Source: an uncultured Nitrososphaerales archaeon
Lineage (GTDB): Archaea; Thermoproteota; Nitrososphaeria; Nitrososphaerales; Nitrososphaeraceae
Reading direction: 5' to 3'
Assembly (NCBI GenBank): GCA_963695855.1
Contig: CAVOHZ010000010.1
Span: 640,001-704,000, forward strand
DNA length: 64,000 bases
Shown here in pieces: positions 34,746-44,667 of the stretch (the first letter of the stretch is position 1; the number at the start of each line of letters is the position of its first letter). Below the pieces are notes generated by a model. It saw nothing but the letters and a program-made list of their open reading frames with translations. It ran no database searches and was not told the origin of the DNA. The position numbers were made by a program, and so were the translations under genes.

Positions 34746-35057
34746 TACAATTTTTCTTGTCTTTTTTAAACGTTGATGAATATTTTTAATAAATTGTGAG
34801 TAAAAAAATAATTATAGATCTTTGATAATTTGTTTATCAGTTCATTTATAATTTTATTTCATCAATTTTATTCTTTAGTATCTCAAAAGATGTGCAAGTT
34901 GATTTTGCCAATCATGCAGATTTAAAAGTATATTGAATCTATTCCTTTTGAATTATTGTATCTTCAAAATGCTGTAGACAGTGTATATAAAAATCTGTTA
35001 ATAAAGTAATGAAATACATATTTATTGAATTGTCTATTTATTTTATATTGTCAATTT

Positions 35058-35996
35058 ATGACTAGGAAAAATCATTTTTTTGGAAAAGATATTGTATCAA
35101 TCAAAGATTTTTCTAGGGAAGATCTGGAATTTATTTTTCAAGCGACTGACATAATTAATAAATCAGATCCTGATGAAAAAACCGAATTAGGTAAAGGTAG
35201 AACTTTAGGTTACATTTTTTATGAACCCAGTACTAGAACAAGGATGAGTTTTGAAGCAGCGATGGCATCCCTTGGCGGTAGCTCGATTGGGATTTTTGAT
35301 TCTAAATTTTCATCTATTGAAAAAGGTGAAAGTCTAGCTGATACTGTAAGAATAATGGATTTATATTCAGATATAATAATTTTAAGACATCCTAGAGACG
35401 GTTCAAGCAGATATGCAGCGGAGCTTTCTAATAATCCCATAATCAATGCCGGAAGTGGAAGCGAAGAACATCCAACACAGGCAATGCTTGATTTATACAC
35501 CATAAAAAAAGAAAAAGGAAAGATAGATGATCTAACTATTGGAATAGTAGGTGACTTGAAATACGGCAGAACAGTATACTCGTTGTTATATGGATTACAA
35601 AATTATAGAGTAAATATTTACCTTGTCTCGCCTCCAACACTGAACATAAGAAATGAATCAATTTATGAAATTCAGAACAAGATAAAAATAAAACAAGAAA
35701 ATTATTTAAATGACGTGATTACTAAACTGGATGTTTTATATGTTACTAGAATACAGAAAGAAAGGTTTCCAGATGTTCAAGAATATGAAAAAGTTAAGGG
35801 CACTTATAGAATTGATGAAAAAATCTTGAATACCACAAAGGCAGATTTGTGCATAATGCATCCATTGCCAAGATTCGATGAAATATCTCATTCGATCGAT
35901 GTGTCTCCAAAAGCAATCTATTTCAAACAGGCTGCATATGGTAAAGAGTTAAGAGCAGCGTTGTTAGCAGTCATATTAAATGAAAATCCCTTTTAG
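35058..35996 (+). CDS. pyrB: Aspartate carbamoyltransferase catalytic subunit
   Basis: FYEPSTRTRMSFE, HPTQAMLD, GDLKYGRT, TRIQKERF, MHPLPR. Confidence 0.96.
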   Translation: MTRKNHFFGKDIVSIKDFSREDLEFIFQATDIINKSDPDEKTELGKGRTLGYIFYEPSTRTRMSFEAAMASLGGSSIGIFDSKFSSIEKGESLADTVRIMDLYSDIIILRHPRDGSSRYAAELSNNPIINAGSGSEEHPTQAMLDLYTIKKEKGKIDDLTIGIVGDLKYGRTVYSLLYGLQNYRVNIYLVSPPTLNIRNESIYEIQNKIKIKQENYLNDVITKLDVLYVTRIQKERFPDVQEYEKVKGTYRIDEKILNTTKADLCIMHPLPRFDEISHSIDVSPKAIYFKQAAYGKELRAALLAVILNENPF

Positions 35997-36089
35997 AATT
36001 AGATTATACCAATTACGATAGGTATTCTGACATTATTTTACTGTTAGGTAATATATTTGGTCACAATAGCTATTAGCTGATATCATTAA

Positions 36090-37200
36090 CATGATGGATC
36101 AAATTGACTACTATTTGCACTATATCAAAAACAAAATTTGAAAAAATATACAGATCTGAACACGATACTAATGTAAAGGAAAGAACTCCACTTGTTGTAA
36201 AATATGATAAATAGATTCCTGCAGAGGTAAGTATGAGATCTTCACAGAAGTATAACATGGTTCTTATTGTTTGAAAAGATGCCATGAAGAAGGTATAGAA
36301 GAATGATTAAAATTTATGTAAAAGTGTGGCAGACTAGCAGAATTACGTGAAATGATTATCCAAGATAAAAATTGAAAATCCTCTAGCCAACATGTTACAA
36401 ATCTAATTGTCAAAACGAGGTAAATTAGATATCCTCGCATATACCGTTTGTTTCACAGTTTGGGATTTGAACAGAAGTGCCAAAAAAAGTACTTCAAACA
36501 CTGCATCTAAAAAAAGAGAACGAATGTTTTATAAAATAAGATAAAGATATACAGCAATAATATCCAAAACTGATTCATATTAGTATCTATTGATGAATCG
36601 TTAATCTTCATTATCTTTCTTGTAAGAAGAATCTGATAAAATATGATAAACAACTAATTGTAAGAGATACTTGGTCCCATCAAAAGTCAGTCTTATCGTA
36701 TACCAACAGTTTGAAAGGAGACCAGCTGTTTAGACAATACAACTAGTTTGATGTCAACACCTTTTTAGATTATCTAAAACAGATTCAGAGGAAATTTCCA
36801 AAATGTTATCTCTTTTTGGATAAAACAAAACAACATCGTTACAGATCAAAAAAGGACTGAAATATTTTGATAAACATTCAAAGATTTTGATTCATATAAG
36901 TCAGGCCGTCATCATGAATATCATCACATCATCTTTCCAAACTTTATGTCTAGATATTCAAACATCTAGTTATTTTAGTAGAATGATACGACATCAACAA
37001 GACATCTGACTTATAAGCCAACAGCGTCTCCTGAATTCACTATACTCGAGGTAACGCGAAATACATAAAAAATGGTGTTCCTGTTTTAAATTATTACTGA
37101 TTCTTTATAGGTTTTAATAGTAAAATATCCAAATATTTCAGAACAAAAAGATTTAGCCTGCATATGATAAACTACCCGTTTCAAGATCCAGATAACATAT
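36090..37200 (+). mobile_element. Degraded IS630-family element
   Basis: Remnants IYRSEHDTNVKER (HTH), QLFRQY...FLDYLKQIQRKFPKCYLFLDK, PTASPEF, KISKYFRTKRF with many stops and frameshifts; boundaries approximate. Confidence 0.8.
36895..37015. mobile_element. MITE-like insertion nested in the IS630 remnant
   Basis: Perfect terminal inverted repeats TATAAGTCAG...CTGACTTATA, including a probable TA duplication; removal restores KILIHKPTASPEF. Confidence 0.75.
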
Positions 37201-37286
37201 ATTAAGCGGTATAGTTTATAGAATGAAACAATTTTATGATTTTTTAATTATAATACATAAAAATTTGGAAAATGAGTAATTGTGTG

Positions 37287-39986
37287 TTATCCAGATACGC
37301 AACTGCTAAATCCGCATTCTATGCACACATTACATCCCTCAGTGATAATGAGTTTTGATTTACAAGATGGACATAGCTCACTTTCGTCTATTTCCATCAT
37401 TGTTTTTTGAATTAATTCCACATTCTTGTTAAAATTTGAAGTTATCAAAACATCTCGTTCTTCTTTTTTCACGTTATCAAATATTTTACTTAGATATTGA
37501 ACTATATATGGCTCTTTTATATGGGAATGAATATAATTAGTAACATAATCACTTGGTTTTACAATGAAAGATTTTTCAAATGTATTTGTTCCTGGAATAT
37601 GTAAAACCTGTTCATTTCGTGAGCCATCTCTATATACAGTAACACCCTTTAATCCCAATTCATGAGAAAGTAGATATGAAGATTTTACATCTTCCACTGT
37701 GACGTCTCCAGGCATATTTATTGTTTTTGCAATAGCATTACTTATCCATTTTTGCCATATTGACTGTGCCATGATATGATCTGTCCAATGAATATCTATT
37801 GCTGTTGTAAATATAGATTGTATCCATTTAGGAATTTCATCAAGACCTCTAACAGAGCCATAATTATTTGCTATTTTTGTTAATATTTCATCATTATAAA
37901 GACCATTTTCTTTTAATATATTTTCAAATATTTTATTAGTATAGAAAAATCTTCCAACAGTAACACGTTTTTCAAAAACCAATGCAAAAACAGGTTCAAC
38001 ACCGTTAGAACAATCTGCTATCATGGATAATGTACCGGTTGGAGCGATTGTAGTAGTCCAAGAATTACGTATTCCAAATTTTCGGATTTTCTCGGTTAAA
38101 GATTCCCAATCATAAGCGTGTTGTTCTTTTGGTATTTCATAACACCCGGATACAGGTATTTTTCCATTCACATAACCAGTTTCTTTGAACAATGGAAAAG
38201 GTCCTCTAGATTTAGCAACAGCAACACTTTCTTCCATGCTATAATAGGTTAATGTTTCAGCTAGTTTATTCATAAATTCATAACCTTCTGTCGATGTGTA
38301 CGGAATACGTAACAAAAACAATAGATTTGCTATTCCCATTATTCCCAATCCTATTCTTCTCGTAAGTTTAGTATTGTAATCGATTTCTTCTATTGGATAT
38401 TTGTTCACATCTATAACATTATCAAGAAGTCGCGATGACAAACGTATGGCTTGCTCATATCTATGCCAATCAAATTCATACATACCATCTGCCTTTCTTT
38501 TAACAAAATTTGCGAGATTTATAGATCCTAAATTACAGGATTCGTAAGGATATAAAGATTGTTCGCCACATGGATTGGTAGCCCTCAATGGACCATTTTT
38601 AGCTTTGAGGCATGGATTGTATTTATTAATATTGTCAAAAAATATTACACCGGGTTCGGCACTTTTCCATGCACTTAAAGATATAAGATCTATCAATTGA
38701 TGCGAATCTATCTGTTTTACGGGTTCGTGAGTCCTTGGATTTTTGAGTGTAAATTTATTGTTATTTTTATTTATCAAAGAATTCCAGAAATCATCCCATA
38801 GTCCTACACTTACATTAAAGTTTTCAAATACACCTGATTTCGTCTTAGCAGTAATGAATTTTTCAATATCAGGATGCCAAGCTTCCAATATCCCCATGTT
38901 TGCACCCCGTCTTTTACCTCCCTGCTTTACAACATCAGTAATGGTATCAATGATTCTCATAAATGATGCAGGTCCTGATGCAACCCCCGATGTAGATGCA
39001 ACTATGTCACCTTCAGGCCTAAGATCCGAATAATTTATTCCCACTCCACCTCCAGATTTAAAAATCATGGCTGCATCAGAAGATGTTTTCATGATCAGAC
39101 CCATATCATCAGGTATATCCAGGACAAAGCATGCTGAAAGTTGACCTAATCTTGCTCCAGCATTCATTAATGTAGGTGTGTTGGGAAGAAAATCTTTTGA
39201 CACCATTAATTCAAAATATTCTTTGATTTTGTCTTCAAAATATCTAAATTTCCCTTGTACAATTAATTTTAATATTTCCTTAAATGATAATTTCATTTGC
39301 CCTCTGGAGGATAATTGAACAAACAAACGTATCAGAGATTCAAAATGAAATTTATTAAGATAATATTCACCTATTTTCAATTTCAGATCGAACTCGTTTA
39401 TTTTATCATAGTAATTGGTTGCTTCTTCAACATCCTGATTGTATCCTCCAGCCAAATTGAAAATAAGAGGATCATGTAATATATCAGCAATAGAGACAAG
39501 AATCGCAACTCTTTCGAACATCTTCTTGGGTCCTTCAATAATCTCATTATTATCATCACGCAATAGATAACGAGATGATAAAACACGTAAAGAATTGATA
39601 TCAAAAGACTTGTCAACTTCATCCAAATCCTTTTTATTAAGAATTTTTATTTTATCTTCTCTTAGTTTTCTTCTTTCATGCCTATAGAGAATATAAGACT
39701 TCGCAGTATCTGCAAGACCATCTTCTATTAGAATTGATTCAACTATATCCTGAACATCTTCAACGCTTGGGATTAAGCCCTTTTCAAATGAATTCCTAGT
39801 GATCTTTTCTAATACCTTATGACTCAATGTTTCAGCTAGTTTAAATTCTGGTTTACCAGTTGCAACTAATGCCTTGTAAATAGCATGTGATATTTTTGCT
39901 TCATCAAAATTAACAACTCTACCATCTCGTTTTTTTATTTGAAAAATAGAATTATTTTTTGGTTTGTCTACTTCAGATACTCCCAT
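37287..39986 (-). CDS. nrdJ: Class II (adenosylcobalamin-dependent) ribonucleotide reductase with ATP cone and C-terminal Zn ribbon
   Basis: IKKRDGRVVNFD ATP cone, PNTPTLMNAG, LSACFV, TNPCGEQ, CNLGSINL, IAPTGT, KGVTVYRDGSR, CPSC/EGC..C..CG.S.C. Confidence 0.96.
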   Translation of the reverse strand: MGVSEVDKPKNNSIFQIKKRDGRVVNFDEAKISHAIYKALVATGKPEFKLAETLSHKVLEKITRNSFEKGLIPSVEDVQDIVESILIEDGLADTAKSYILYRHERRKLREDKIKILNKKDLDEVDKSFDINSLRVLSSRYLLRDDNNEIIEGPKKMFERVAILVSIADILHDPLIFNLAGGYNQDVEEATNYYDKINEFDLKLKIGEYYLNKFHFESLIRLFVQLSSRGQMKLSFKEILKLIVQGKFRYFEDKIKEYFELMVSKDFLPNTPTLMNAGARLGQLSACFVLDIPDDMGLIMKTSSDAAMIFKSGGGVGINYSDLRPEGDIVASTSGVASGPASFMRIIDTITDVVKQGGKRRGANMGILEAWHPDIEKFITAKTKSGVFENFNVSVGLWDDFWNSLINKNNNKFTLKNPRTHEPVKQIDSHQLIDLISLSAWKSAEPGVIFFDNINKYNPCLKAKNGPLRATNPCGEQSLYPYESCNLGSINLANFVKRKADGMYEFDWHRYEQAIRLSSRLLDNVIDVNKYPIEEIDYNTKLTRRIGLGIMGIANLLFLLRIPYTSTEGYEFMNKLAETLTYYSMEESVAVAKSRGPFPLFKETGYVNGKIPVSGCYEIPKEQHAYDWESLTEKIRKFGIRNSWTTTIAPTGTLSMIADCSNGVEPVFALVFEKRVTVGRFFYTNKIFENILKENGLYNDEILTKIANNYGSVRGLDEIPKWIQSIFTTAIDIHWTDHIMAQSIWQKWISNAIAKTINMPGDVTVEDVKSSYLLSHELGLKGVTVYRDGSRNEQVLHIPGTNTFEKSFIVKPSDYVTNYIHSHIKEPYIVQYLSKIFDNVKKEERDVLITSNFNKNVELIQKTMMEIDESELCPSCKSKLIITEGCNVCIECGFSSCVSG

Positions 39987-40110
39987 ACAGCTCGCCTTCC
40001 AATTTTTTAACAATCATCATTATTTATAAGAATTGTGAATTGAAAATACCAATAAAAATATTATATCATGGGGTTAGATACAATTTTTAAATGCTAGATT
40101 TTGGGTTATT

Positions 40111-40137
40111 TATCGATCTAAATCATATAGGTCGATA
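40111..40137. promoter_or_regulatory. Inverted repeat in the nrdJ upstream region (10-7-10, one mismatch)
   Basis: TATCGATCTA-aatcata-TAGGTCGATA; operator or terminator, function not established. Confidence 0.4.
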
Positions 40138-40161
40138 GCTAGATTCTACAGTTATTTGTTA

Positions 40162-42303
40162 TTATATAGATATTAATGAAATTTTATGAGAACCACAATA
40201 TTCACAAATTCTATTATTAGTACATGGGGATCGTTTTCCACAAATATTGCATATGGTCAACCTAAAGGTCATCCGAACAAAAGGGAGATCGAGTGATGAT
40301 TCAATTAACGTTCTAACCTCTTTATCGGTAGAAATATTTTCAATATCGAGATCAATAGAAAGATTTCCTTTCAGAATATTTTCTACAGCACAGTAATGAT
40401 CACATACTGATTTCAAAGAAAGATTATTTGATAGGACATCTGTACCTTTAACTTGAAAACCTTGTGAATAAAGCTCATGTTTATCGTTAAATGAATTGTC
40501 GGAAATTGCAATAGATTTACCGTATTTCTCATTGTCTAGACTCTTGAATCGATTTGAACTTTCATCTTTTAATATAGCTATCCCTAGACTTGAATTTGAT
40601 GATTCTTTAGCCTGTTCACTTATTATATCTACAGCCGTCTGTAGAACTTTACAAACAATATTTTCACATTCGTTTCCAGATTTGTAACCTAAAATGTTAT
40701 AAATTGATTCATTAATTCCAACTAAATTTATCATAGCATCTATCTTACCGAGTTGGAGATTTGAAGTAATTTTTGCTAGGAGTGGTGTAGTTCCCTTTTG
40801 TATATGCTCGGATATATTACTCACACGCTGATAGATGACAGATATTAAAGGTTTAAGCAATAACGCAAGTCTTGCTCTAAAATATGTCTCATCTCTATTT
40901 GATTGATATGCTATTCGTGGGAGATTTATTGACAACGATTGAAGTGTTACTACCGTAGTTTTTACGGAAGGATGAACTGGTTTGCAAAGGCCGTACCTTC
41001 CCCGTATTTTTTGTTGAGAAAATGAGATAATTCCACCAAGTCTAGAAATCTTTGCAATTTTATCAGTGTATTTGTAAATGGTGTTTCGGTCTTCACAGAC
41101 AAGAGACAAACCAATATTGGGGATAGGAGTATTTACTGTGTACCTGTAGTATCCATCAATTACGATATCTATCAGGAAGGAATTAGAGTCATCTAGATTG
41201 ATAGGCAATGTGATGTGAGGGGAAAATGAGGAAACAGATGATATCGAAGATGAAAGAAAAAGGATTTTAGAAAATTTATTAACAAGGTTTTCGTCAGTCT
41301 GAGCATATTTCGCAAGAAACTCGATGAGTCCTTCTAAAACCACTTCACGAGAAACCTCTCTAGTTAAAAGAGAGAGTAACAAAGGAATAATTGAATCATA
41401 ATCATGTGCATTACATAAGGAGGTTATCTTTGAAATCCCTAGATACTTCCCTTTAATATCAGAAAGACTATCTACTACAGAATTTAGATTGATGAAAATT
41501 GTATCAGGAAGTAAATTCCAGAATCCGCTCTTTCCAATATTAATTTCACCCATCAAATGCATGTCTACGATATCTTTTGGGAGAGAATTATTAAGCAGAT
41601 ATTCAGTAAAAATTGAAGATGACGTTTTTATGAAAAGATCAGGAATTTCTACATTGGACCTTGTATCATTAATAATATTTATCAAATCTATTGGGGGTAT
41701 TCCTAATCTTGCAAGTTTATTCCTATATTCATCATATCCATGATCTACTAGCACTGAATTGGTAGTTTCCCTTATTAGTGATGATGTAAGATAAGAGGTT
41801 TGAATTTTGTAGATCTTATTCTCCACTTCCTCCGTAATCTTATTTGCAAGTTCCAAAGGCATATTGGCCTCACGTACTAAAGACTGAATGATTTTATTAG
41901 AATCAAATTCTTCTATCGAAGGTTTGGTAGTCCTAACATACAACTTGCCGCTTTCTATTATCGATCTTTCCTCTATTTGACGAGCGAGACTTAAAACTAA
42001 TTTACCTAGATTAGTTATAGTATATCTCCTTTCTGCCTTGTTAAGAGACACTAAAGATTGTCTGAGTAATTTTCTTAGATGATAAGCAAATTTCCCAGAT
42101 TCTTTCTTTGATTTAAATCCTGCTAATGATTTTAATTCAGAATAGGTTAATGGTCCCTTAGAATTTAAAATTCTGAGAATATCAATACGATTGGGACTAG
42201 CCATGACTGAAAAAATCATTCTTACACGTCTTGAAGCTGACTCTAAAATTCCACCACGTTTCAAACTAGTCCTATTTGTGGTTTGGTATTGTACTCGCTC
42301 CAT
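40162..42303 (-). CDS. Winged-HTH + ATP-cone + degenerate class III RNR (NrdD-like) fusion lacking the glycyl-radical motif
   Basis: ASPNRIDILRIL...AYHLRKL...YTITNLG (ArsR-type wHTH); EEFDSNKIIQSLVREA cone; SINLPRIA, LVGINE, ESSNRFKSLD.EKYG, CNICG...CEYCG then stop; no RxxGY. Confidence 0.85.
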   Translation of the reverse strand: MERVQYQTTNRTSLKRGGILESASRRVRMIFSVMASPNRIDILRILNSKGPLTYSELKSLAGFKSKKESGKFAYHLRKLLRQSLVSLNKAERRYTITNLGKLVLSLARQIEERSIIESGKLYVRTTKPSIEEFDSNKIIQSLVREANMPLELANKITEEVENKIYKIQTSYLTSSLIRETTNSVLVDHGYDEYRNKLARLGIPPIDLINIINDTRSNVEIPDLFIKTSSSIFTEYLLNNSLPKDIVDMHLMGEINIGKSGFWNLLPDTIFINLNSVVDSLSDIKGKYLGISKITSLCNAHDYDSIIPLLLSLLTREVSREVVLEGLIEFLAKYAQTDENLVNKFSKILFLSSSISSVSSFSPHITLPINLDDSNSFLIDIVIDGYYRYTVNTPIPNIGLSLVCEDRNTIYKYTDKIAKISRLGGIISFSQQKIRGRYGLCKPVHPSVKTTVVTLQSLSINLPRIAYQSNRDETYFRARLALLLKPLISVIYQRVSNISEHIQKGTTPLLAKITSNLQLGKIDAMINLVGINESIYNILGYKSGNECENIVCKVLQTAVDIISEQAKESSNSSLGIAILKDESSNRFKSLDNEKYGKSIAISDNSFNDKHELYSQGFQVKGTDVLSNNLSLKSVCDHYCAVENILKGNLSIDLDIENISTDKEVRTLIESSLDLPFVRMTFRLTICNICGKRSPCTNNRICEYCGSHKISLISI

Positions 42304-42338
42304 TGCACCCGTTATAATTAACAAGTAATTAAAACTAC

Positions 42339-42360
42339 TTTGTAAAGTTTTTTTTACAAA
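42339..42360. promoter_or_regulatory. Perfect 8-6-8 inverted repeat upstream of the HTH-NrdD-like gene
   Basis: TTTGTAAA-gttttt-TTTACAAA, 36-57 bp upstream of ATG 42303. Confidence 0.5.
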
Positions 42361-42410
42361 TAATATAATGTATTGTAATTAACCAATTGAACAAATAAAA
42401 TTAATAATTG

Positions 42411-43019
42411 TTATATCAGAACTGGTTGACCTTCATGGAACTCATTTTCTTGTGCCTTGTAAATTCGTTTCTTATGTATATGACTAGGTACTTCCGGAAG
42501 CTTGTTTTTGGTATCCTCTTCCATTAAGGATTGTACTTCATTAAGAATGTCCAATGCCTCAGAGTTTACAGGAAAGTGAATAGTATCTGACTGTAAGTTT
42601 AGGCTGGTATTAACCAAAACATCATCAGTTAACGATGACATTTCTGAGAAAAGTAGTTTTGCTTGTGGAACTGTATCAGCTATATCTATCTGAACTTCTT
42701 TTATTGTATTAATCATTGGATTTATTGTATCTAAAATTCCAGCAAATTCGGAAATAGTAGAAAATCTAATAACTGTTCCCTCCAGTGCTATTGACAATTT
42801 TTGTGTTATATTTTTTATTTTCCTAATATTTACCAATTCGCGAGCAATGACTTTAGCGTTACTAGTATCACCGTTCTTTACTTTAATTGCAACTTTAACA
42901 GATAATTCCCTATCAAGCGAGGCGAACCTTTTCTCAAGTATCCTCAGTTTAGCAAGCTGTGTATTAACAACGACGGTTGCATGAGCAAGTCTGTTTTGAA
43001 GCTGGGGATACTTTTCCAC
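42411..43019 (-). CDS. CdvB / ESCRT-III (Snf7) family paralog
   Basis: Coiled-coil Snf7 core (AKVIARELVNIRK...LEGTVIRFSTI), EALDILNE, LPEVP MIM-like tail; no C-terminal wH domain. Confidence 0.85.
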   Translation of the reverse strand: MEKYPQLQNRLAHATVVVNTQLAKLRILEKRFASLDRELSVKVAIKVKNGDTSNAKVIARELVNIRKIKNITQKLSIALEGTVIRFSTISEFAGILDTINPMINTIKEVQIDIADTVPQAKLLFSEMSSLTDDVLVNTSLNLQSDTIHFPVNSEALDILNEVQSLMEEDTKNKLPEVPSHIHKKRIYKAQENEFHEGQPVLI

Positions 43020-43116
43020 AACATCGTATTAATTTTCAGGATGTTAACTTTAATGTTAACCAATGTAGACAAATTGATAAAGCATTATAAATTAACAAAA
43101 CAGCACATAGTTTAAT

Positions 43117-43503
43117 TCAGATTTTTTTAATTACTAGACCATGTTTTTCATCGAATCCAACTACCTTTACTTTTGAACCTATTGGTAAATCTGATGGAGA
43201 TTTAATCCCAGGAAGAAAACCAGACACTCTAATAGGAGCACTTTCAAGGGAGAATACTACCCAAGCATAACTCTCTACGTCGTCAAATCCTTCGGGAGGG
43301 ACTGCATGGATCGTGAAAGTAATTACTTTACCAATACCATCCAACTCTACTACATCAAACTTATTATTTTGACATTTAGTACAATAGACCATCGTTTCTA
43401 AAATAAGTGTATTACAATTTCTACAACTTCTAACTAAAATCTTGGAATTTTTTGCAGAAGATATGAATTTCTCTCTTAATGCAGAATTCAGTACATCTTT
43501 CAC
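43117..43503 (-). CDS. DUF35 Zn-ribbon/OB-fold protein (thiolase partner)
   Basis: CRNC...CTKC, GKVITFT, PPEGF, IGSKV; directly follows the thiolase. Confidence 0.9.
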   Translation of the reverse strand: MKDVLNSALREKFISSAKNSKILVRSCRNCNTLILETMVYCTKCQNNKFDVVELDGIGKVITFTIHAVPPEGFDDVESYAWVVFSLESAPIRVSGFLPGIKSPSDLPIGSKVKVVGFDEKHGLVIKKI

Positions 43504-43512
43504 TTTACGCGC

Positions 43513-44667
43513 TTACACCTTTTTAAAAATATGAACTGCTGCACTAGCACCTGTAGCTCCAAAATTATGAGTAAGAGCTATTTTGGCATTCTTAATCGTT
43601 CTCTCTCCTGCCTTACCACTAAATTGGTCATATACTTCAACTATTTGTCCTATACCCGTTGCTCCAATTGGATGACCTTTGGACTTTAAACCCCCAGATG
43701 GGTTAATTGGAATTCTTCCTTGTCTTGATGTAGCACCATCCCTGATTTCTTTTACAGCTTTTCCCTTTTGAAAAAATCCTAAATCTTCAACATCTATTAT
43801 TTCCGCTATAGTAAAACAGTCATGAACTTCTGCAAAATCCACATCCGTGGGCGAAATATTTGCCATCTTGTATGCCTGATTTGCAGCAGCAACGGTACTT
43901 GGAATAGTGGTTATTTCTTCTCGTCCTTGGACTGCTGCTGGTGAACCTCCGCGACCAGATCCTATCACTTCTATATATTCTCTGCCACTTTTTTTTGCGA
44001 AATCTTCACTACAAACAATAACTGCTGATGCACCATCAGAAAAAGGACAGCAATCATAAAGTTTCAAGGGAGAAGCTACAACTGGAGAATTTAATACATC
44101 ATCTACTGTTATTCGCTTACGCATATGTGCCTTTGGATTCAATAATCCATTTTCATGATTTTTAACAGCCACAAGTGCCAGATCCTCTTCATTTGCTTTA
44201 AATTTAGTCATATAGGCTCTAGCAATGGACGCAAAAAGTCCAGGAAAGGAAGCACCATTGCCACCTTCATAAAAGAAATCAGAACAGTAAGAAAAGAGTG
44301 TCGTACTCTCTGTCGTTCCGGTGTGAGTAATTTTTTCCACTCCCAGAGCTAAAACACAATCATAAAAGCCAGCGGCAACATTGGCATATGCTTCTCTAAA
44401 CATCACAGACCCAGAACCACATGCAGATTCTATTGTAAGACCAGGAACATGAGATATACCAAGATTACTCATTATGACAGGAGCCATATGTACTTGTTTA
44501 TCAACAACACCGAAAACGTTGGAGATATACCCAGCCTCGATATCTTTTGGAGTAATTCCTGCTGATTCTATTGCATCTACTGAAGCGTTTAATGCTATTT
44601 CAATAATACTTTCATCTAATTTACCATATTTTGTACTACCTGCTCCTAAAATGCAGACTTTATTCAC
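43513..44667 (-). CDS. Archaeal thiolase (acetoacetyl-CoA thiolase type)
   Basis: ESACGSG, DCCPFSDGA, AEVHDCF, NPSGGLKSKGHPIGATG. Confidence 0.93.
   Translation of the reverse strand: MNKVCILGAGSTKYGKLDESIIEIALNASVDAIESAGITPKDIEAGYISNVFGVVDKQVHMAPVIMSNLGISHVPGLTIESACGSGSVMFREAYANVAAGFYDCVLALGVEKITHTGTTESTTLFSYCSDFFYEGGNGASFPGLFASIARAYMTKFKANEEDLALVAVKNHENGLLNPKAHMRKRITVDDVLNSPVVASPLKLYDCCPFSDGASAVIVCSEDFAKKSGREYIEVIGSGRGGSPAAVQGREEITTIPSTVAAANQAYKMANISPTDVDFAEVHDCFTIAEIIDVEDLGFFQKGKAVKEIRDGATSRQGRIPINPSGGLKSKGHPIGATGIGQIVEVYDQFSGKAGERTIKNAKIALTHNFGATGASAAVHIFKKV

Follow-up and report, generated by a model that had tools for sequence, protein, structure and literature searches.

What does an ammonia-oxidizing archaeon (AOA) do with a gene resembling that of the anaerobic, class III ribonucleotide reductase (RNR), NrdD, when AOA are aerobes and an intact gene for another class of RNR lies directly downstream? 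We addressed this question for a 64,000-nucleotide stretch of an uncultured Nitrososphaerales archaeon (assembly GCA_963695855.1, contig CAVOHZ010000010.1, positions 640,001 to 704,000), here called the window. A minus-strand gene at 40162..42303, with its stop codon at 40162-40164, encodes a 713-amino-acid protein (P0001 in our alignments) and is followed on the same strand by nrdJ at 37287..39986. That P0001 is a pseudo-enzyme, an NrdD fold without radical chemistry, is very well supported. Regarding its role, we lean toward the view that P0001 descends from a duplicated NrdD and controls RNR expression as a DNA-binding dimer, on the basis of architecture, conservation, and gene order; DNA binding by P0001, its target, its ligand, and the sign of regulation are points that we infer.

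The minus-strand frame is uninterrupted from 40162 to 42324 and gives 713 amino acids from the ATG at 42303, which we took as the start, according to the list of open reading frames (ORFs) and their translations. Start and length are those of the closest relatives in a word-index protein search. An initial annotation of this DNA had read the protein as an ArsR-like winged helix-turn-helix (wHTH), an ATP-cone-like domain, and an eroded NrdD barrel, and this architecture was borne out by Pfam, by profile searches, and by Foldseek, with Pfam spans that agree with the positions proposed for the first two domains. Residues 30 to 104 (41992..42216, minus strand) match DUF7347 (40.2 bits; cut-off, 27.6) and HTH_20 (32 bits; cut-off, 27) and form an ArsR/SmtB-like wHTH that includes the recognition helix GKFAYHLRKL (42067-42096, minus strand). 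Residues 122 to 193 (41725..41940, minus strand) match the ATP-cone family PF03477 (36.5 bits; cut-off, 25.8). A linker and the catalytically dead class III RNR alpha/beta barrel occupy residues ~206 to 675 (40279..41688, minus strand), as delimited by the profile and Foldseek comparisons with the PDB, and the NRDD family (PF13597) matches residues 451 to 709, corresponding to profile positions 276 to 534 of 562 (59.9 bits, E = 2.5e-16; cut-off, 26.2). The NCBIfam NrdD equivalog TIGR02487 scored 53.1 bits and so missed its curated cut-off of 326.35.

All of the NrdD-type motifs named in the initial annotation were found in P0001: SINLPRIA (residues 458-465), LVGINE (527-532), the RF..LD.EKYG pattern as RFKSLDNEKYG (585-595), and CEYCG (700-704), which together with CNICG (685-689) makes up a C-terminal Zn ribbon (C685, C688, C700, and C703; 40195..40251, minus strand). 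The chain runs for 10 residues beyond the last Zn Cys. In an alignment of 48 family members (A1), three residues of the wHTH (G70, Y74, and H75) and three of the ribbon (C685, C688, and C700) show no variation, and C703 is conserved to at least 90%. The metalloregulator model NF033788 scored below its cut-off on P0001 (23.7 bits versus 55), and the N-terminal 205 amino acids found only matches to SmtB and ArsR at an E value of 0.38 in the PDB.

Because the single sequence of P0001 matched nothing meaningful in the PDB (best E value for the whole protein, 0.21), we searched with a family profile built from A1, which also supplied the AlphaFold2 model. The profile matched class III RNR structures only (five of five distinct PDB sequences), namely, those of S. 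thermophilus (9d3x; E = 4.5e-38), P. copri (8p23), T. maritima (4coi and 4u3e), and T4 (1h78; E = 1.1e-28), with alignments that span nearly the entire barrel. The AlphaFold2 model (pLDDT of 84.2 and pTM of 0.72) has the order helix-helix-helix-hairpin-helix at its N terminus, which is that of an ArsR-type wHTH, and the last helix is long. Among the Foldseek matches listed against the PDB, ranks 1 to 34 are class III RNRs (best E value, 1.3e-16; target-normalized TM scores, 0.52 to 0.66), followed by class I enzymes.

Modeling also suggests that the dead barrel forms a dimer. Two copies of the barrel (residues 215 to 713, with A1) gave ipSAE values of 0.58, 0.58, and 0.59, versus 0.00 for three controls, with at least 90% of contacts in common between runs and a partner pLDDT of at least 79. 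The predicted interface consists of residues 218-232, 288-316, and 342-357, which are N-terminal barrel helices. Of 30 proteins solved as pairs of one chain, 20 reached the ipSAE mark that we applied, as did 1 of 23 solved as single chains, counts that are only a rough calibration because our own alignment was supplied; the pass may also reflect likeness, since NrdD dimers have already been solved.

The paper on P. copri NrdD (PMC11226230) places the radical at Gly711, the initiator Cys416 at the finger-loop tip, and Cys171 on the first strand, and it gives Asn435 at the position of a third Cys in other NrdDs; chain positions in our profile alignment equal that paper's numbering plus 4. Aligned with the solved NrdDs in this way, P0001 ends right before the R of RxxGY and has no glycyl-radical loop. 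The initial annotation had the stop just before that loop, as it is, although nine residues follow CEYCG and not seven. Gly711 aligns with a family column of G, A, S, or N that P0001 stops short of, and Cys171 falls in an insertion between two positions of the family consensus (t and i), where P0001 reads PDTIFIN. The comparison with solved structures that the initial annotation had proposed thus leaves P0001 without both the glycyl loop and the first-strand (beta-1) Cys.

We tallied residues at these positions in a MAFFT alignment of 270 family proteins (227 from searches and 43 from fetched loci) and 12 NrdD or NrdD-like proteins of the same phylum. Membership was defined by a match to the N-terminal HTH-plus-cone module only; the rows include many close AOA kin, so that the counts are not independent, and 1 of the 12 reference proteins, that of locus L120, is truncated. 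In the Gly column, 185 of the 200 short-tail rows have a gap, whereas 11 of the 12 NrdD rows carry G; the 70 long-tail rows have G in 14 cases, A in 17, N in 11, T in 9, and other residues in 19. The beta-1 Cys is present in all 12 NrdD rows, in 1 of 200 short-tail rows, and in none of the 70 long-tail rows. The Zn Cys columns, for which NrdD rows were not compared, are kept in 165 to 166 of the short-tail rows and in 69 to 70 of the long-tail rows. Not one of the 270 family rows has the catalytic triad in the precise columns; when residues up to 4 columns away on either side were allowed, a single row (P0228) had all three residue types, its Cys residues being at noncatalytic positions.

Genome-wide profile searches of the window's assembly (3.55 Mb, 99.87% complete) gave a consistent RNR inventory. 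The RNR barrel family PF02867 had one match, nrdJ (minus strand), which encodes a class II (B12-dependent) RNR whose ATP-cone is canonical and whose TIGR02504 score is 746.6 bits (cut-off, 399.95); it lies 175 bp downstream of the gene for P0001, confirming the intact, codirectional nrdJ described before. PF13597 likewise had one match, the gene for P0001. The statement that the window holds no nrdG can be extended, as no NrdG exceeded the cut-offs in the whole genome (best scores, 47.3 versus 131.15 bits for TIGR02495 and 31.2 versus 126.1 bits for TIGR02491). The genome has no Gly_radical domain (PF01228), so that neither a separate glycyl-radical subunit nor its activase was found, and no class I small subunit (PF00268). 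NrdR (TIGR00244) was absent from the genome and from the NCBIfam matches of P0001. The 67-amino-acid C terminus of a true NrdD found no match in the genome in a search that had no positive control.

P0001 belongs to a large and well-conserved family. The word-index search scored 8,000 candidates, 3,924 of them at an E value of ≤0.001; the best 120 of these are all 710 to 719 amino acids long and 62 to 96% identical to P0001 with full-length coverage, and 119 of the 120 carry all four Pfam families. An exhaustive search of representatives returned 882 clusters at an E value of ≤0.001 and 148 at ≤1e-30. We confirmed at least 597 loci, counting one genome per species, and the best 80 come from Nitrososphaeraceae, Nitrosopolaris, Nitrososphaera, Nitrosopumilus, and Nitrosarchaeum. 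Relatives of ~740 to 800 amino acids, from Bathyarchaeia and one Asgard genome (Atabeyarchaeum), retain a remnant of the radical domain. In a sample of 301 genomes across the phylum, the N-terminal module (query P0276) was matched in 207 and a true NrdD exceeded the cut-off in 153. The module occurred in all 43 genomes of a sister family of the same order (Nitrosopumilaceae type), which had only weak, regulator-type NrdD matches (E values of 1e-12 to 1e-22), and in none of the genomes of several families (f4, 0 of 13; f12, 0 of 20; f27, 0 of 8).

Selection on the gene is purifying. Compared with a 95%-identical orthologue (L018; dS of 0.19), dN/dS is 0.110 overall and, by region, 0 in the HTH, where dN is 0, 0 in the cone, 0.134 in the barrel, and 0.56 in the 38-codon Zn ribbon; more distant pairs gave 0.125 to 0.171 overall, with dS saturated. 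The N-terminal half is the most constrained part, and the barrel is still clearly constrained. Conservation across AOA and beyond, combined with purifying selection, argues that P0001 is no one-off truncation, as the initial annotation had asked. Assembled contigs from four metatranscriptome-labeled runs (three studies) cover parts of the ORF at 95 to 99% identity, for example, 40580-41226 (10 differences in 647 positions) and 41715-42125 (5 in 411); such libraries can contain DNA, and these contigs are no proof of transcription, of strand, or of transcript ends.

Gene order ties the family to RNR genes. Among the best 80 AOA loci, 61 have nrdJ directly downstream on the same strand, which amounts to 61 of the 68 loci with at least 1.5 kb of downstream sequence; the gaps range from 84 to 1334 bp. 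The remaining 19 loci comprise 12 with less than 600 bp of downstream sequence and 7 that truly lack nrdJ. Outside AOA, ten genomes from three families have the regulator gene immediately before a true nrdD. A true nrdD is directly downstream in L103, L104, L142, L143, and L144, and nrdJ is in L106 and L138. In L103, the regulator homologue P0273 (DUF7347, ATP-cone, and NRDD at 316 bits; TGCRF present, radical Gly replaced by Ala) is followed by the NrdD P0274 (643 bits, with MCCRL and SRVVGY) and then by a convergent pyrB. The window repeats this order of regulator, RNR, and pyrB, with nrdJ in the nrdD slot: a pyrB-like aspartate carbamoyltransferase gene, whose start codon is uncertain, lies at 35025..35996 on the plus strand, convergent with nrdJ.

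A quick IQ-TREE analysis of the barrel region (LG+G4, SH-aLRT support only) covered 122 family rows and 11 NrdDs, with L120 left out; a family row entered the tree if it was <62% identical to any row already kept and comprised 380 or more barrel residues. The 122 family rows formed one group (SH-aLRT of 100), within which the AOA rows were a nested clade of 34 (support of 100) on a long stem. With the root placed arbitrarily on seven P0274-type NrdDs, all NrdDs being from one phylum, four NrdDs of the regulator-adjacent type fell beside the family group. The short C terminus, as a label on this tree, requires at least 10 changes. By blastp, the products of regulator-adjacent nrdD genes scored 245 to 344 bits against P0273 (cone included), versus 147 bits for P0274 against P0273. 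Judged by these sequence comparisons, the family predates AOA and is no AOA invention.

We postulate that an ATP-cone-bearing NrdD was duplicated, gained an N-terminal ArsR-like wHTH, and lost its radical chemistry. The dead barrel would hold two wHTH heads together, and the ATP-cone-like domain, perhaps with the old barrel pockets, would be the signal-sensing or oligomerizing part. The output would be transcriptional control of the adjacent RNR gene (nrdJ here and nrdD in some anaerobic relatives) and probably of the regulator's own gene. A fuller scenario, which we offer tentatively and with less confidence, is that this is an ancient archaeal transcription factor built from RNR: the duplicated NrdD would have lost its radical, its remodeled cone and barrel would sense the nucleotide pool, and with its acquired wHTH it would regulate RNR in Bathyarchaeia, AOA, and some Asgard archaea, in the role that NrdR has in bacteria. 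It may then have stayed in place when the ancestor of AOA exchanged an oxygen-sensitive nrdD for a B12-dependent nrdJ at the same locus.

NrdR, the bacterial RNR repressor, is the nearest functional comparison. It has been described to sense ATP and dATP, to oligomerize and thereby control binding at nrd promoters, and to be rare in archaea (PMC9110341). P0001 shares with it a DNA-binding module joined to an ATP-cone-type domain and a gene located at or near nrd genes. However, the DNA-binding module of P0001 is an ArsR-like wHTH and not a Zn ribbon, its cone lacks the K-R dyad, and it carries in addition an entire dead NrdD barrel with a Zn ribbon at the C terminus, so that the likeness is one of functional analogy and not of membership. 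Class III NrdD, for its part, shares the ten-stranded barrel fold with its finger loop, motifs of the types NLPR, GLxE, and RxxxxD..YG, the C-terminal Zn ribbon, the N-terminal ATP-cone, and, by prediction, dimerization through the N-terminal barrel helices, whereas P0001 has no glycyl-radical loop, beta-1 Cys, or conserved thiyl Cys, has an added wHTH, and comes from a genome with no activase.

Winged-HTH regulators derived from enzymes include PurR of B. subtilis, which has a phosphoribosyltransferase fold, and NrtR, which has a Nudix fold. They resemble P0001 in joining an inactive enzyme fold, as sensor or scaffold, to a winged HTH and in being encoded near the pathway that they control; the scaffold of P0001, by contrast, is an RNR barrel. 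Enzyme-derived sensor domains fused to wHTHs and ATP-cone regulators of nrd genes are known kinds, of which the RNR-barrel protein would be a variant. A full-text literature search, with most subscription journals outside its reach, found no precedent for an RNR barrel as a regulator scaffold, no published description of this family, and no mention of DUF7347.

Several observations, on gene order, on promoters, and on the former nucleotide sites, weigh against P0001 being an RNR regulator. As for gene order, 7 of the 68 informative AOA loci have no downstream nrdJ, and the synteny counts overstate the support because kin are not independent. Outside AOA, we inspected 36 loci (L106 to L141), at least one per family code and picked mostly without regard to adjacency (that of L120, from genome G150, was known beforehand); four more were added beyond L141, three of them from genomes with known adjacency. 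An RNR-type gene comes right after the regulator in only 3 of the 36, as nrdJ in L106 and L138 and as a truncated NrdD-like gene in L120. A convergent pyrB is directly adjacent in nine (L109, L115, L116, L121, L125, L129, L131, L134, and L141), and several other loci have it at a distance of about two genes or less. Adjacency to an RNR gene is thus strong in AOA and scattered elsewhere, and pyrB, which has no promoter in common with the regulator, is the most widely kept neighbor. The nrdJ synteny that the initial annotation had wanted checked is deep; outside AOA, the commonest sampled neighbor is pyrB.

An alternative hypothesis is that P0001 is a DNA-binding regulator of wider nucleotide metabolism or of the cell cycle, acting, for instance, on pyrBI or on replication and division genes, and that its adjacency to nrdJ in AOA is inherited gene order. 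The pyrB neighbors outside AOA agree with this, as do a Snf7/ESCRT-III-like gene just upstream of the regulator in one locus, with ORFs of similar size upstream elsewhere, and families such as f4 and f27 that have true NrdD and no regulator N-terminal module. Convergent genes without a common promoter, however, say little about control, two RNR classes fill the same-strand downstream slot in scattered branches of the family, and P0001 is itself derived from an RNR. We regard this hypothesis as unlikely, though it is the strongest of the alternatives.

Promoter sequences give the proposed RNR regulator only candidate sites. The 175-bp intergenic region between the regulator gene and nrdJ (39987..40161, minus strand) contains an imperfect 13-1-13 palindrome at 40111-40137, flanked by a direct repeat, GCTAGATT, at 40093 and 40138; changes in this palindrome in L018 also fit an RNA hairpin. 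In the nrdJ-proximal part, a TATA-like TTATAAATAA (40020-40029) gives nrdJ an apparent box of its own, so that the regulator and nrdJ need not be cotranscribed. The region upstream of the regulator gene (42304..42410, minus strand) holds a perfect 8-6-8 inverted repeat, TTTGTAAA/TTTACAAA, at 42339-42360, 35 nucleotides before the ATG, which is a candidate element. No operator common to all lineages emerged upstream of the regulators in 43 loci, where only a TATA-like "TTTTTTAAA" recurs; k-mer counts over 62 intergenic regions gave none, and none could be defined in the window's own clade. An Rfam search of 36000-43500 detected no riboswitch or leader in either intergenic region and gave one subthreshold C/D-box match elsewhere. 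A scan for sigma-70 promoters and terminators stayed at chance level, with a bacterial model that does not apply to archaea.

Related genomes provide better candidates. In Nitrosopumilaceae, the perfect palindrome TATGAAnTTCATA, variable in its central base, lies 94 to 110 nucleotides before nrdJ in 13 of the 19 intergenic regions, with no further copy in ~240 kb of flanking loci and 1 to 3 sites per genome in five genomes. CGATCAT has 25 copies in Nitrosopumilaceae intergenic regions (6.4 per kb) versus 8 elsewhere (0.033 per kb), CGATC upstream of the regulator reaches 2.70 per kb versus a background of 0.73 per kb (17 loci), and in many 14-kb loci GATC is densest in two 200-bp windows that coincide with the promoter regions on either side of the regulator gene; part of the GATC counts falls in coding Asp-Leu repeats. 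The TATGAAnTTCATA and CGATCAT boxes are candidate operators, as far as can be judged from these relatives.

Attempts to extend these boxes to a regulon failed. The paired pattern TGATCN{5,10}AGATCWT had 5 to 17 hits per genome versus 3 to 7 for a control in five genomes, a further point against the proposal, and it cannot define a regulon because it is not genome specific. Second TATGAAnTTCATA sites were a promoter duplicate in L147, lay between convergent genes in L146 and L148, and sat among small ORFs in L149, including a DUF6659 ORF and a Fur-family gene; they form no regulon. The L147 site (~2005 in G303:C1:643500-647500) is part of a copy of the nrdJ promoter and the 5' cone-coding part, 79% identical over 315 nucleotides, which lies ~66 kb from the real nrdJ and upstream of a 331-amino-acid ORF without a Pfam match; it is not independent because it duplicates the nrdJ promoter. 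In Nitrosopumilus (L080 to L083, L086 to L088, L093, and L095), the regulator has an apparent acidic, Asp-Leu-rich N-terminal extension ("...ELDLDADLDSDLD..." in L080) that is absent from P0001; it was read by eye from the DNA and raises the GATC counts there.

The claim of the initial annotation that the former nucleotide sites are retained is weakened. The domain at residues 122 to 193 is a cone by profile comparison (hhalign of 116 nonredundant family cones against 37 canonical cones of NrdJ and NrdD; probability of 99.15, E = 3.8e-19), and the canonical iRKRDG aligns with VRTS in the family and VRTT in P0001. In the P. copri paper (PMC11226230), the cone contacts are Lys7, Arg8, Tyr83, Arg87, and Arg91, with Lys7 and Arg8 touching phosphates; we placed these numbers on the canonical consensus by motif spacing, with no alignment to the P. 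copri sequence. The K-R dyad is T-T in P0001 and T-S in the family consensus, and the seven-residue segment noted as akayil in canonical cones, which by its spacing would hold the Tyr83 equivalent, is absent from the family. The Arg of the YR motif is kept (R194, equivalent to Arg87), and R199 is invariant. In the barrel, the substrate-phosphate motif HIHD of NrdD (residues 157-160) is NIGK in P0001, and loop 2 of P. copri NrdD is an insertion relative to the family profile, with no aligned counterpart. With dyad, segment, HIHD, and loop 2 all changed, nucleotide sensing is not supported by the sequence. The cone is nonetheless the most conserved part of the family in A1, and such strict conservation implies that it does something, a retained though possibly altered function. 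A degenerate second ATP-cone in NrdA of P. aeruginosa was reported in a preprint (bioRxiv 10.1101/2022.04.23.489257) to be unable to bind ligands. That cone, too, keeps the fold and has drifted from the nucleotide-binding consensus, whereas the cone of the P0001 family is not drifting.

Another hypothesis is that P0001 is no transcription factor and that the dead RNR scaffold works by contacting proteins or binding nucleotides, for example, buffering or sensing deoxynucleoside triphosphates (dNTPs) or modulating RNR or replication proteins, with the wHTH used for dimerization or nonspecific DNA tethering. No operator was definable, the barrel is under more constraint (dN/dS of 0.13 to 0.20) than a mere dimerization scaffold may need, and since the adjacent-type NrdDs are the nearest active relatives, hetero-oligomers are conceivable in anaerobes. 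Yet the only RNR in AOA is of class II, which is not the partner protein of the ancestor; the recognition helix is the most invariant stretch, with dN of 0 against L018, as expected for sequence-specific DNA reading; and conserved palindromes lie upstream of nrdJ in Nitrosopumilaceae. We find this hypothesis improbable, more so than that of a broader regulator.

It is very improbable that P0001 is still an RNR or another radical enzyme that receives its radical from an unrecognized partner. The finger-loop tip, GRYGLCKP (residues 435-442; 40978..41001, minus strand), has L439 or C440 where NrdD has the thiyl-radical Cys: Cys416 of P. copri aligns with the family consensus l, which is L439 of P0001, and C440 is one residue off, with a shift of one residue possible. 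The initial annotation saw no clear MGCR/CCRL-type motif, which is not strictly true, as a Cys-Lys pair (C440-K441, RYGLCK) lies at or next to the tip. We scored this Cys by motif count because the MAFFT column sat two positions off the hidden Markov model alignment; the finger-loop stretch contains C[RK] in 5 of the 70 long-tail rows (as TGCRF in P0273, for instance) and in 58 of the 200 short-tail rows, where the examples inspected all read ...YGLCK... or ...FGLCK.... C440 may thus be a vestige or an offset neighbor of the thiyl Cys. A radical enzyme could draw on C440 in the window's clade, on the Gly that 14 of the 70 long-tail relatives keep at the radical position, and on several radical-SAM genes in the genome, all of which score below the NrdG cut-offs. 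However, the finger-loop Cys of short-tail rows is confined to the window's close clade (V, A, or K replaces C440 in other AOA), P0001 ends before the radical loop and has no beta-1 Cys, no member of the family has all three triad residues in their exact places, and the genome of this aerobic lineage has no NrdG, no PF01228, and no match to the NrdD C terminus in the search run without a positive control. A decaying pseudogene or annotation artifact merits almost no credence, for despite a weak NRDD score (59.9 bits) and eroded barrel motifs the frame is intact at equal length in all 120 listed close relatives, the family has at least 597 loci in species-representative genomes, dN/dS is 0.11, and the RNA-library contigs, though no proof of transcription, match parts of the ORF at 95 to 99% identity.

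The control of RNR transcription in archaea is largely unknown, and this family, which spans globally abundant nitrifiers and Bathyarchaeia, is unannotated or misannotated while being widespread in ecologically important archaea. If it is a true RNR regulator, it would offer a testable handle on dNTP homeostasis and cell cycle control in AOA, an example of a whole RNR barrel recruited for regulation, and a record in genomes of how class II RNR replaced class III RNR as aerobic life was taken up. As anticipated in the initial annotation, many members bear the database name "anaerobic ribonucleoside-triphosphate reductase," which would wrongly imply anaerobic capacity in metabolic reconstructions of AOA.

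Some relatives depart further from NrdD. In L120 (4889-6931, plus strand; G150), a 680-amino-acid protein with an ATP-cone and an NRDD domain (406 bits, profile positions 1 to 517) is encoded directly after the regulator and breaks off immediately behind the first CxxC of the Zn ribbon. Here the radical domain may have been lost a second time, independently, or the GC-rich contig may have been misassembled or its ORF miscalled. Members of 545 to 603 amino acids in L108, L111, L112, L127, and L128 (families f11 and f17) have no C-terminal Zn ribbon, a further reduction of the scaffold, and the Zn-ribbon columns are gapped in 34 of the 200 short-tail rows. Another ATP-cone fusion outside RNR is encoded in the window's own genome (G000:C10; L015:1459-2295, plus strand), a 278-amino-acid ORF with an ATP-cone (34.8 bits; ~894225-894434), Mrr_cat, and an AF1548-like C-terminal domain.

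Immediately before the regulator gene and on the same strand, the window has a 202-amino-acid ORF (42411-43019, minus strand) without a Snf7 match at an E value of ≤0.001. ORFs of 206 to 213 amino acids occupy this position in L032, L033, L039, L052, and L070, which are five of seven AOA loci compared, and that of L032 (5207-5833) matches Snf7/ESCRT-III at 36.9 bits. In three Nitrososphaera loci (L040, L042, and L064), the nrdJ match is split over ~3.8 kb, versus 2.7 kb, with a lower best-segment score, which suggests an intein-sized insertion. In a gap between two minus-strand ORFs of the window, 43029-43095 (minus strand) gave the C/D-box match mentioned above, to the SNORD34 model (25.2 bits; gathering score, 38; E = 0.24), and could be an archaeal C/D sRNA or chance. 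Farther upstream, the interval 43117-44667 (minus strand) holds a thiolase-like ORF of 384 amino acids, recognized by eye from its translation, and then a 128-amino-acid ORF with a ChsH2-type OB fold (32 bits).

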